From Squalus acanthias (taxonomy: Eukaryota), in the NCBI GenBank assembly GCA_030390025.1, contig CM059439.1, forward strand, positions 66,898,001 to 66,962,000: 64,000 bases of DNA, written 5' to 3'. Of the stretch, positions 12,994-29,631 are shown in pieces; positions within the stretch are counted from its first letter, which is position 1, and the number at the start of each line of letters is the position of its first letter. The position numbers and the translations under genes are program-made. Under the pieces are notes generated by a model that was given only the letters and a program-made list of their open reading frames with translations, searched no databases and had not been told where the DNA came from.

Positions 12994-13049
12994 GTAAACT
13001 GGACCAGTGGTCTTGTTCCTTCCTCCGGGCATGCCATCTTCACGAATTG
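12994..13049 (-). CDS. NR6A/GCNF-type nuclear receptor, 56-nt exon for the C-terminal extension (T/A box)
   Basis: ttatttttcAG|CAATTCGTGAAGATGGCATGCCCGGAGGAAGGAACAAGACCACTGGTCCAGTTTAC|GTaagt encodes (A)IREDGMPGGRNKTTGPVY. Its phase-1 start joins the DBD exon in frame. NR6A1 has AIREDGMPGGRNKSIGPVQ here (recalled). Confidence 0.93.
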
Positions 13050-13544
13050 CTGAAAAATAAAGTTATTCTTTTCACGAAAAGGTCTTTACAATATAATTAA
13101 TGAGGGTTCTTCAATGGAACCTCCAAATTCTTTCAGCTCTTGATGAACGACGCCATTTTGCATTGACATGCAAGACAGCAAGTCATTTCTGGGTTTGTTT
13201 TAATAAAAAAATGCTTTTAACACGACTGCCAAATTGTATCATAATAAAATCACTATGTTAATTTTGAAATTCAACTAAGATGCTTTGTGTAGCTTCCACA
13301 GTCCTTACATTATTGTACTGCAGTGCAGCAGTATCAATATCCACACATCAGTCTACATTTTCTGTTGTTTAATGTCTGATTTTTGAGTGTATAATGGACG
13401 TAACTGTTTGGAAAATCAGCTGGAGATCTGTGCTGCTGGATCTATGCCCATTTTTTGGCCTGTCTGATGTTGTGCCATTAATTAGCACAGCTAATGGCTG
13501 CAGGATGTATCACCAGTTTGTGAGTACACCATGCAAATGAGAAA

Positions 13545-14010
13545 ACATGGGAACATTCAGAACAGGAGTAGGCCATTCAGCCTCTCGAGCCTGCTCCACC
13601 AATCAATTAGATCATGGCTGATCTGCACCTCAACTTCATTTTCCCACCTTTGCTCCATAGCCCTTAATACCCATACCTAACAAAAATTGATCAATCTCAG
13701 TCTTGAAAGCTCCAATTGTCCCAGTATCCACAGCCTTTTGGGGGAGAGACTTCCAAATTTCCACTGCCCTTTGTGTGAAATAATTTTGCTCCTGAATAGC
13801 CTAGCTCTGATTTTAAGATTGAGCCCTCTTGTTTGGGATTTCCCCCACCAGTGGAAATAGTTTCTCTATATCTACCTTATCGAATTCTTTATCATTTTAA
13901 ATATCTTAATTAGATCATCTTTCAACCTTCTAAACTCTAGGGAACACAAGCTAAGTTTATGCAACCTGTCCTCATAATTTAACCCTTTAAGTCCTGGTAT
14001 CATTCTGGGA
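13545..14010 (-). mobile_element. CR1 3' fragment
   Basis: RMIPGLKGLNYEDRLHKL...LEFRRLKDDLI and the GGAGTAGGCCATTCAGCC tail. Confidence 0.85.
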
Positions 14011-14208
14011 AACACTGGGAAAACTGGAGCCGTCAGCATTGGTTCTTCTGCTGCATCGGAATCAATCTCCAGCAGCCCACGTGGCAGAGATTCCACAACG
14101 AATGATCCTGACTACTTGAAACATTGAGGTCACGCGTTCATAGATTTATTAAGCATACAGTACATGCAATAATACTTAAGCATACACTTAAAAGATAGTA
14201 TTTACAAC

Positions 14209-14381
14209 CAATGTTCCCTGTAAGCTGTGCTTTGTTCTGCGCTGCCTGTTTCTTTTAATGTGCAGTCCCTTTAAATGTCTGTGTACGCCTGGTATTTACA
14301 CTGTAAAAGCCGGTGAGTGACCTGCATGGGACCTTTCAGATTACTGCGCGGCCGCGCGCCTGCACCTTAGCGGGAACATTG
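14209..14381. mobile_element. hAT-type MITE, 173 bp
   Basis: TIRs CAATGTTCCC / GGGAACATTG, exact 8-bp TSD TTTACAAC (14201-14208 and 14382-14389). Confidence 0.9.
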
Positions 14382-27180: not shown

Positions 27181-27968
27181 GGTTCTGACTTTTTCAGAAA
27201 AAGATATAAAATGGTAGTGCCAAAATTCTTAGCACAAAATCTTTTAAACATTCAACTACAATAACATGCATCTATAGTACATCTAACGCAGAAAAAACAT
27301 GGCTAACTTCAGCCCTTTTCCTCCTCTCTATTGGGGGCTTTTTTGCATTTGAATTGATGACAATGCTTCAAACAAATCAGAAGTATAGTAATATGATATG
27401 AGGAGTGACACAAATAGAGCAACAGAAACTGAAAATATTTGGGCAACAGGATTCCTCAGTTTGATCAGCTGTCCTTGTTGTTTAGGGACTGTGTTTGCGG
27501 ATCGAGAGGTACACATAGTATAGATAACCAAATCTTACAACGGACAGATGTGGAGCTTGGAGTTTAAACATTTCAAACTAACCCAAACTTTTTTTTCCCT
27601 TGAAAGATTAATTTGCCAGCAGAAACGAGGACTCCAGAGCTCGATGGGAAACTGTGTTCAGAGTGATACATCATAGCCTGTAAAGGTAAATCACCAGGAC
27701 AGTATTAACAGCAATCCAGCTGAGGTCTGAGGTTCACTCAATTCTCCTGCTTATACTGGAGCCAGTTGTCAACGCTTGATAGATGTGCTTGAGTGTAGTT
27801 AAAGGGGCATTGCAATCTGGTTGGGAAGGTGAGAAATTGTGATATGAGGGAGAAGGGGAAGGTTCCGCAGAAAAAAATAGAAGTAAAATACTTGAAAGAA
27901 AAACAAAGAATAAAACAAGAGAGCAGTGACCAGAAAGCCTTTTGCTAAACAGCTAAGAAAGAGATAAT

Positions 27969-28752
27969 GGGCAGAATTTGCGGTCGGTATGCTGATGTAC
28001 TCTCAGAGTACGCTGTCATACTGCCTTTGAAATGGACAGCAAGTTCAGGATTTCCGCATGCGCTTGTGCATGCACTAAATCCCAAACTTGCGATCTGTCA
28101 AGTTCCGACTTGACAGATCACCTGCTCCGACTGTATTGTCCTCATCACTGGCGCAGAGTTGGACTAATTGCCCACCAACCGTCCAGCAATTACGCATGAA
28201 AATTTTACGGCTGGTGCAAACAGGCGCAGGAGCCTGTTTGGACAGTGTAAGGGGGCACCCATCATGATAAAAAATCTTCATCTGATGCTTTGTTGTTTAA
28301 ATTACTATAAATATGTTTGCCCTTTACACTGAGCCTGCCTGAGGGATTAGCAAACCCCCAAAAGTTCAGTTGAATATTATCCGAATGTACATCTCTGCTT
28401 GAATAAAATAATTAAGCAGCCTGTAGTGTAGTGTGATTGCTTCTGGTCTATTGATAATTTTCCCCAAAATTAATTTCTAATTCTAAGAATGTAAATCCAG
28501 ACTGCGGTGAGTGAGAGACTGGGGGTGACTGAGAGACCTTCTGTTTCCTGATTGGAGCACCGCCCCACGTGATCCCAGGCACGCTTACGCACGTGGTGCG
28601 CCTCTGGGATCCGTGGGCCACTATGCTGAGTGCAACTCCACAGCGTCTGACAGCAACTTCTCGAAGGAGGGCTCCCAGCACGTAAGTGCGCATCCTGTTC
28701 GGAGGTCGGCGGTGTACTCCGTAGCTACGTCATCGACCACAATTTCAGGGCC
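27969..28752. mobile_element. Harbinger-type MITE, family 2
   Basis: Ends GGGCAGAATTTG / CAATTTCAGGGCC. Shares GAGTACGC, CGCATGCGC and CACGTGATCCCA with 55476; AT-rich middle. Confidence 0.7.
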
Positions 28753-29400
28753 ATTGTTACATTAGATTAGGTATTTCACAAAGGCTTCACTATGTGCTGT
28801 CCCAATCCAGTTTATCGTATCTGCTTGTTTAAATGCAAATTCAGATGTACGCACAGTATTTCAGTTCCTAAGGTAAGACATTTCCCTTGAGTTAGTTTAA
28901 GTTGTTGATGAGCTGGTTACCTCGTCACTCTTTTTTGGTCGTCGGCTCAGATAATTTCTGAATCTTGCTGTGCACCGTGATAACGATTGGCTGATATTTA
29001 AACAACAATCCGCGATTAAATTAAACACGTAAAGTTAGCTAGTTCTGTAACGCTCGGTGCTCCAGAACAACGAGAATTTAACCGAACAGTTCTAGTGAAT
29101 GCCAACGTCAAACTGAGGCCTATCTGTGAGAAAATACAGAGAATGTTTAGAGGTTCCATGGGAACCAGGAGCTGTCTGAGAGCAGGTGGTCCATGTACCT
29201 GTGATATTGGGTCAGTTGCTCATTATGCATCTCGTCCGATTTTCATCCAATGAGAGATGTATAACAGATGTCTGAGCCAATATTGCCTGTTTTCCTCTAT
29301 CGTCCAAAGTCAAAATTACCCCCATTGAGTGCACCACCTCGAATGGAAGCTAAGGTCAGACAATAGTGTGTTTAATGAAGCTGACACAAACATTACCAAC

Positions 29401-29631
29401 CTTTCCTGTTCATGCCCATTTGCAAGCACTTCATCAGCCGGCAGTACTGGCATTGGTTCCGCTGCTTTCGTGTCATGGTGCAGTTCTTGTTCCGACTGCA
29501 TTTGTAAATCCGCTTATTAAATATGCTTCGCTTGAAGAATCCTTTGCACCCTTCACAGGAGGTAATTCCGTAATGTAATCCTGTAGCTCTGTCACCACAG
29601 ATTAGGCAGACTCGTCTGTCTGAGCAATCAC
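29401..29631 (-). CDS. NR6A/GCNF-type nuclear receptor DNA-binding-domain exon (both C4 zinc fingers)
   Basis: gttttacAG|GT...AAAG|GTtggt, 231 nt, phase 1-1, open: [97 protein letters not shown] and a single-exon DBD are NR6A hallmarks. Symbol withheld because orthology is unresolved. Confidence 0.96.

Follow-up and report, generated by a model that had tools for sequence, protein, structure and literature searches.

A complete second NR6A gene in Squalus acanthias, likely an ohnolog of NR6A1

To our knowledge, NR6A1 (GCNF, RTR) is the only NR6 member in mammals. A 2024 review treats NR6A1 as the sole member of subfamily 6, without close homologs, and describes a receptor that governs the exit from pluripotency, Hox timing and the number of trunk vertebrae, binds direct repeats with zero spacing (DR0) as a homodimer, represses through NCoR/SMRT and DNA methylation factors, and has miR-181a-2/b-2 antisense at Nr6a1 (PMC10909835). 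A 2021 table gives no solved structure for its ligand-binding domain (LBD) (PMC9909358), and a third source lists insect HR4 as "NR6A2" (PMC7827873). HR4 carries the same subfamily label, but it is a non-vertebrate receptor and no vertebrate paralog; because its name is already in use, another, such as NR6A3, would be needed for a second vertebrate gene. A comparable case is NR5A5, an ohnolog that cartilaginous fishes retain and mammals have lost. Here we report that a 64,000-nt stretch of the 3.7-Gb Squalus acanthias genome (G000:C15:66898001-66962000; hereafter the window, from whose start exon coordinates below 64000 are counted) contains exons 2 and 3 of a complete second NR6A gene, distinct from the canonical NR6A1 on contig C14. 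Its retention in sharks and chimaeras is the same as that of NR5A5, but the NR6A family has been thought single-membered, and the loss of the gene described here appears to be ongoing within sharks.

A reading of this DNA made from the sequence alone (the sequence-only reading) had proposed two exons 16.35 kb apart, with canonical splice sites and matching phases. This was borne out: the intron measures 16,351 nt, and the exons encode a full two-zinc-finger DNA-binding domain (DBD) followed by the T/A box (Table 1). Their reading frames were, as that reading said, missing from the list of 82 open reading frames of at least 100 residues; the DBD exon lies in an open frame of only 88 residues and was for that reason not listed. 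The spliced DBD peptide has NR6A1 as its best PDB match (5KRB, E = 1.2e-39; next RXR, 1e-26), and the top named protein matches are NR6A proteins. The LBD exons that were to be looked for to the left of the window are all present and open. Alignment of database orthologs to 254 kb of C15 located exons 4 to 9, which encode the hinge, the LBD (five open exons) and the stop, so that exons 2 to 9, all bounded by AG/GT, provide 430 open codons and then a stop. Exon 1, of 16 nt, is the only place in 484 kb that fits a pattern taken from the chimaera N-terminus, and a horn shark RefSeq isoform begins with the same six residues and joins the same micro-exon to the DBD. With the splice from exon 1 to exon 2 inferred, the predicted protein is 436 residues long, in an open frame of nine exons over 306 kb. 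A peptide look-alike of the short NR6A1 N-terminus at C15:66981351 lacks a GT at the required place. The sequences at the start of the sawshark and sevengill models match repeats and were dismissed as first exons. Repeat pieces at window positions 50884-50837 and 49894-49844 match the sawshark RefSeq N-terminus, which marks the 5′ end of that model as repeat-derived.

The source genome also holds the separate, canonical NR6A1, beside NR5A1 and an olfactomedin gene on C14. Among 56 genome-wide matches to the DBD exon, two are of NR6A type (100% and 83%) and the other 54 lie at 38-63%; no third NR6A DBD was found genome-wide, C22 included, in a search that did not extend to decayed remnants. The C14 gene, with exons 2 to 9 of 231/56/158/225/255/122/153/89 nt, is 98.8% identical to catshark NR6A1; it, and not the C15 gene, is near-identical to shark NR6A1 and has the NR6A1 position between NR5A1 and OLFML2A. 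The two proteins are identical at 248 of 427 residues (58%), with 119/234 in the LBD. Every intron position and phase agrees between them, and the structure of the C15 gene is therefore no chance match. Like NR6A1 of other jawed vertebrates, the C15 paralog has the P-box, the zinc ligands, the T/A-box core and the stop position. However, where the NR6A1 DBD core is unchanged from shark to bat (66/66), that of the paralog keeps 57 of 66 residues, together with 20 of 23 in the T/A-box extension, against both bat NR6A1 and its own C14 counterpart; the sequence-only reading had counted the same nine core and three extension changes against human NR6A1. The long NR6A1 isoform has three upstream exons; these were located on C14, but 564 kb of C15 yielded no counterpart.

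The neighbourhood of the C15 gene is that of a paralogon equivalent to the NR5A1-NR6A1 block, as had been suggested, with NR5A2, miR-181 and PTPRC as flanking genes. The order on C15 is CAMSAP (65.74 Mb), NR5A2 (66.40-66.58), the NR6A paralog, a miR-181 pair (67.318), PTPRC (67.49-67.51) and V-ATPase G (67.787), and that on C14 is NR5A1, NR6A1, a miR-181 pair that lies within the long NR6A1 5′ region on the opposite strand, and the olfactomedin gene, which was identified by sequence motifs. NR5A, miR-181a/b, CAMSAP and V-ATPase G genes are present on both contigs; the order and strands of NR5A, NR6A and miR-181 are the same on both, and on C14 CAMSAP and V-ATPase G are found at a distance of 6-11 Mb. 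The paralog mirrors NR6A1 in having a short first coding exon preceded by the upstream element, an antisense miR-181 pair and a tandem position upstream of an NR5A gene. The NR5A genes were assigned by their hinge exon because the last LBD exon fails to separate NR5A1 from NR5A2, both genes scoring best on human NR5A2 with it. The C15 hinge matches human NR5A2 (E = 8.6e-40), and identity to bird SF-1 is 72.7% for the C14 hinge and 64.5% for the C15 hinge. A search with the CD45 Pfam family gave no match for PTPRC, which was then detected via its phosphatase domain, with CD45 as best match (1e-26 vs 1e-15 for the next). We take human 9q33 (NR5A1-NR6A1-OLFML2A) to be the counterpart of the C14 block and human 1q31-32 (ATP6V1G3-PTPRC-miR-181a-1/b-1-NR5A2-CAMSAP2, with no NR6A annotated) to be that of the C15 block. 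Finally, 6 of 13 filtered matches between the upstream DNA of C14 and C15 are collinear, both miR-181 genes and a 74-nt element upstream of the first exon among them; the other seven were treated as low-copy repeats or low complexity, and a 45-nt non-coding match at C14:81247585 was dropped, having passed only one of two repeat filterings. On the basis of this synteny and the collinear non-coding matches, the C15 paralog is very likely an NR6A1 ohnolog from the early vertebrate genome duplications.

A third paralogous block is seen on C22, where features lie at 16.12-16.16, 10.43 and 12.32 Mb and no NR6A DBD was found. It comprises a third NR5A gene (16.12-16.16 Mb; hinge 63% identical to C15 and 59% to C14), presumably NR5A5, a CAMSAP gene, and a miR-181 pair with a/b-like mature arms (10432003 and 10435745), 3.7 kb apart where the C15 pair is separated by 0.2 kb and the C14 pair by 5.9 kb. 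Receptor or CAMSAP exons were also seen on the small unplaced contigs C2063, C3365, C839 and C2335; an LBD match on C839 and one on C21 have equal scores, which points to haplotype duplicates.

Orthologs were sought among annotated proteins, using the best 120 of 175 matches, 6 LBD-region matches, 150 listed representatives and 45 short matches. Among the matches listed, paralog-type sequences come from four species, in Pristiophorus, Heptranchias, Callorhinchus and Heterodontus, and none from a bony vertebrate, ray, catshark or bamboo shark, the search being of annotated proteins rather than genomes; NR6A1 of catshark, bamboo shark and rays is present in the same collection. The sawshark, sevengill and chimaera orthologs are 92.6%, 90.1% and 70.4% identical to the C15 gene model, and the sawshark and chimaera models are open through the LBD. 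All bear automatic "NR6A1-like" labels in which paralogy is not stated, and several have 5′ ends that are wrong or repeat-derived.

In a 31-row tree with rows picked from full-length matches, the C15 paralog and the sawshark, sevengill and chimaera "NR6A1-like" proteins form one clade (100/100), with chimaera outside the sharks. Its stem is long (0.88) and lies outside the 25 jawed-vertebrate NR6A1 rows, a placement recovered in a 21-row tree with hagfish, Ciona and brittle star, in which the hagfish row could not be placed because of its length. The paralog and vertebrate NR6A1 together are separated from invertebrate GCNF in both trees (99/95 with 31 rows, 97/96 with 21), and among the protein matches listed, Branchiostoma and Ciona each show one GCNF type. 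In both best trees the duplication predates the divergence of cartilaginous from bony fishes. Teleosts also have two NR6A genes per genome, but nr6a1a and nr6a1b both fall inside ray-finned NR6A1 (100/97); they therefore derive from a later duplication and differ from the C15 paralog.

The paralog has changed far more than its canonical counterpart. Between Squalus and sevengill it keeps 360 of 388 residues and NR6A1 keeps 419 of 421, about 15 times more change in the paralog. Of 166 deeply invariant alignment columns, 25 are changed in all paralog rows covering them, 19 of these in the LBD. In the structure model of the sawshark ortholog (mean predicted local distance difference test score, pLDDT, 57.6; DBD of low confidence), the LBD is all-helical and matches nuclear receptor LBDs, with block pLDDT values of 67-94 over residues 270-460. 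Eight of the 19 LBD changes sit in two of its helices, residues 398-419 and 426-444, which in this receptor family form the dimer surface. In the paralog, unlike in NR6A1, helix 9-10 residues that are invariant from hemichordates to mammals are replaced, and survival of the gene is patchy. Because the zinc ligands, P-box and T/A-box core are kept, the paralog likely binds the same AGGTCA/DR0 sites as NR6A1, and the replaced helix 9-10 residues suggest that its dimer and cofactor contacts differ. Within the paralog clade as a whole, 24 of the 166 invariant columns vary versus 82 of 260 others (p = 5.5e-5), which indicates clade-wide constraint.

The first exon of the paralog and a 74-nt element upstream of it match the short isoform of NR6A1. 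Genome-wide, the element matches only at these two loci. It carries RGKTCA half-sites on one strand, four in the C15 copy and three in the C14 copy; in each copy, two of them are spaced 7 nt apart. When the 3-kb loci are taken whole, RGKTCA counts do not exceed chance (11 vs 8.35 and 4 vs 6.82), and it is solely the clustering within the element that is conspicuous. The element is thus a candidate nuclear-receptor response element. In each of the two short first exons, an out-of-frame ATG precedes the start codon by five bases (C15:67015242 and C14:81212979), a shared feature that could damp translation. A further short alternative first exon of NR6A1 lies at C14:81213834, 860 nt upstream of the short-isoform exon, with no counterpart found on C15.

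The reading that we favor, with a probability of about 0.7, is that the C15 gene is an NR6A ohnolog encoding a DR0-binding repressor, expressed from a short internal promoter, with altered dimer and cofactor contacts, partly redundant with NR6A1 and in the course of being lost. Early vertebrate genome duplication would have produced a second NR6A gene, beside NR5A2 and PTPRC, which would have undergone a burst of change on the paralog stem and then purifying selection in chimaera and shark ancestors. The short internal promoter would drive a protein with a remodelled LBD surface that may act at AGGTCA/DR0 sites, by repression or by competition with NR6A1; the paralog would be partly redundant with NR6A1 and would have been lost more than once. 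Several results weigh against this view. Monophyly of NR6A1 without the paralog is weak (91/31 in the 31-row tree, and 81/87 with hagfish inside in the 21-row tree), and the approximately unbiased (AU) test fails to reject grouping of the paralog with shark NR6A1 (p = 0.113), so that dating of the duplication rests on synteny. The ohnolog origin that the sequence-only reading put forward as a possibility is upheld by the mirrored synteny and the separate NR6A1; the tree alone would also allow a duplication confined to sharks. If NR6A1 had instead been copied by segmental duplication or transposition in the cartilaginous-fish ancestor, and the copy had then evolved fast, that would agree with this AU result and with the finding of orthologs only in cartilaginous fishes among the annotated-protein matches. 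However, this would require that the copy inserted between NR5A2 and the other miR-181a/b pair with order and orientation preserved, the non-coding matches are collinear through the miR-181 genes, and the NR5A1/NR5A2, miR-181 and CAMSAP pairs of C14 and C15 are themselves old paralogs; we regard such an origin as very improbable. That the C15 gene is an assembly artefact or a haplotype copy of NR6A1 has a negligible chance, given 58% protein identity, a different chromosome-scale contig with different neighbors, and orthologs in four named species.

The remaining points against the favored reading concern the health of the gene. Transcript support seems to be poor for the sawshark and sevengill models, since both have 5′ ends that match repeats and the last exon is missing from the sevengill one. 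The horn shark models, of 112-137 residues, contain no LBD, and in their DBD a glycine and conserved arginines are altered. Orthologous contigs from runs X1-X3 (two samples of one study, from related sharks with flanking introns about 96-97% identical to those of Squalus acanthias) carry two lesions in the DBD exon, a premature stop within the second finger and, at the exon's end, a deletion of 10 nt. Because of the truncated horn shark models and these lesions, the gene appears to be broken in at least two shark lineages, and it may be on its way out. The proposed loss in mammals accords with the lack of a paralog among annotated mammalian proteins, but loss is not confined to them. On the Squalus acanthias terminal branch, changes fall on 4 of 166 invariant and 6 of 260 other columns (p = 1.0), and with the three terminal shark branches pooled, private changes fall on 13/490 and 29/754 (p = 0.34). 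These data bear on the view that the origin is the same ancient one and the Squalus copy is non-functional or nearly neutral, a unitary pseudogene still free of stops, helped by slow substitution in sharks. In line with it are the broken copy in close relatives, the 13 non-synonymous or stop codon changes (one in a single run) against 4 synonymous ones when two exons are compared with X1-X3, and the roughly 4 amino acid changes on the Squalus lineage where neutrality predicts 6.7 (p = 0.20). But all nine exons, the eight introns and the ATG are intact, although a rough neutral model with hand-entered rates expects about 3 disabling events since the split from X1-X3 (probability of none, about 0.05), the upstream element is still 85% identical to that of NR6A1, and models of two other species are open through the LBD. 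We consider a pseudogene unlikely, if a serious contender; the paralog is likely under weakening selection and, as judged from its sequence, likely functional in Squalus acanthias. Presumed-RNA runs gave no evidence either way, X4 and X5 having no cover on two LBD exons and X6 only a short piece of the DBD exon.

Table 1. Parts of the C15 NR6A paralog, associated features and orthologous protein models
Feature	Position or accession	Strand	Remarks
Coding exon 1	C15:67015237-67015222	minus	16 nt, ATG and GT; beyond right window end
Intron 1, 3′ part	window 29632..64000	minus	whole intron 87.6 kb, inferred
Coding exon 2	window 29401..29631	minus	231 nt, AG/GT; both DBD zinc fingers; P-box and all zinc cysteines intact
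Intron 2	window 13050..29400	minus	GT...AG, phase 1
Coding exon 3	window 12994..13049	minus	56 nt, AG/GTAAGT; T/A box, the C-terminal extension
Intron 3, 5′ part	window 1..12993	minus	whole intron 88,337 nt
Coding exon 4	C15:66822656-66822493	minus	164 nt; beyond left window end
Coding exon 5	C15:66816853-66816629	minus	225 nt
Coding exon 6	C15:66815242-66814988	minus	255 nt
Coding exon 7	C15:66790164-66790043	minus	122 nt
Coding exon 8	C15:66743207-66743055	minus	153 nt
Coding exon 9	C15:66709688-66709600	minus	89 nt, ends in stop
74-nt element	C15:67015363-67015436		about 130-200 nt upstream of the 16-nt-exon ATG in both genes
miR-181a/b pair	C15:67318182-67318484	antisense to the C15 paralog	beyond right window end
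Sawshark (Pristiophorus japonicus) ortholog	UPI00398EF87A		automatic "NR6A1-like" model
Sevengill (Heptranchias perlo) ortholog	XP_067845709.1		automatic "NR6A1-like" model
Chimaera (Callorhinchus milii) ortholog	XP_042190907.1, XP_007885551.1, A0A4W3I7F9		automatic "NR6A1-like" models
Horn shark (Heterodontus francisci) ortholog	XP_067893717-25		automatic "NR6A1-like" models

The introns are filled by reverse transcriptase and endonuclease fragments (window 3254-4330, 25722-26444, 32096-32401 and 36727-39338), presumably of the long interspersed nuclear element type. On the minus strand, a long open stretch broken by a stop (window 667-1788, with a further piece at 16119-16421) has to our eyes the look of a Harbinger/PIF-type transposase, and a tandem array of short repeat units at 57450-58363 leaves several frames open. 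An Rfam search of the window gave no match.

The sequence-only reading had allowed that the paralog might already be described. No description of a second vertebrate NR6A gene was found in titles and abstract openings, a search that did not cover the shark receptor survey of Fonseca et al. 2020, but the automatic models noted above stand in RefSeq and UniProt for four species. The abstract of that survey of cartilaginous-fish receptors is said to stress new NR0B genes; its tables could list a gene of the C15 type, a chimaera model having existed. Whether the paralog is undescribed in print is about an even bet.

A second vertebrate member would give the orphan receptor NR6A1 a within-vertebrate comparison, and the 74-nt element, kept in both copies, offers a direct candidate for the means by which NR6A1 is activated. 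The paralog would also explain the placement of a miR-181 cluster. With intact, truncated and stop-containing copies in living sharks, the loss of an ohnolog could be observed in progress. More tentatively, at rather less than even odds, chimaeras and some squalomorph sharks have an undescribed, functional second NR6A that, through its conserved DBD and rebuilt helix 9-10 surface, competes with or modifies NR6A1 at DR0 sites, possibly in trunk patterning, as part of a block that pre-dates the duplications. If this is true, the NR5A-NR6A-miR-181 block would be older than the genome duplications, the short promoter with its nuclear-receptor half-sites would be the ancestral GCNF promoter, and the mammalian miR-181a-1/b-1 cluster beside NR5A2 would mark the site of a lost GCNF gene.

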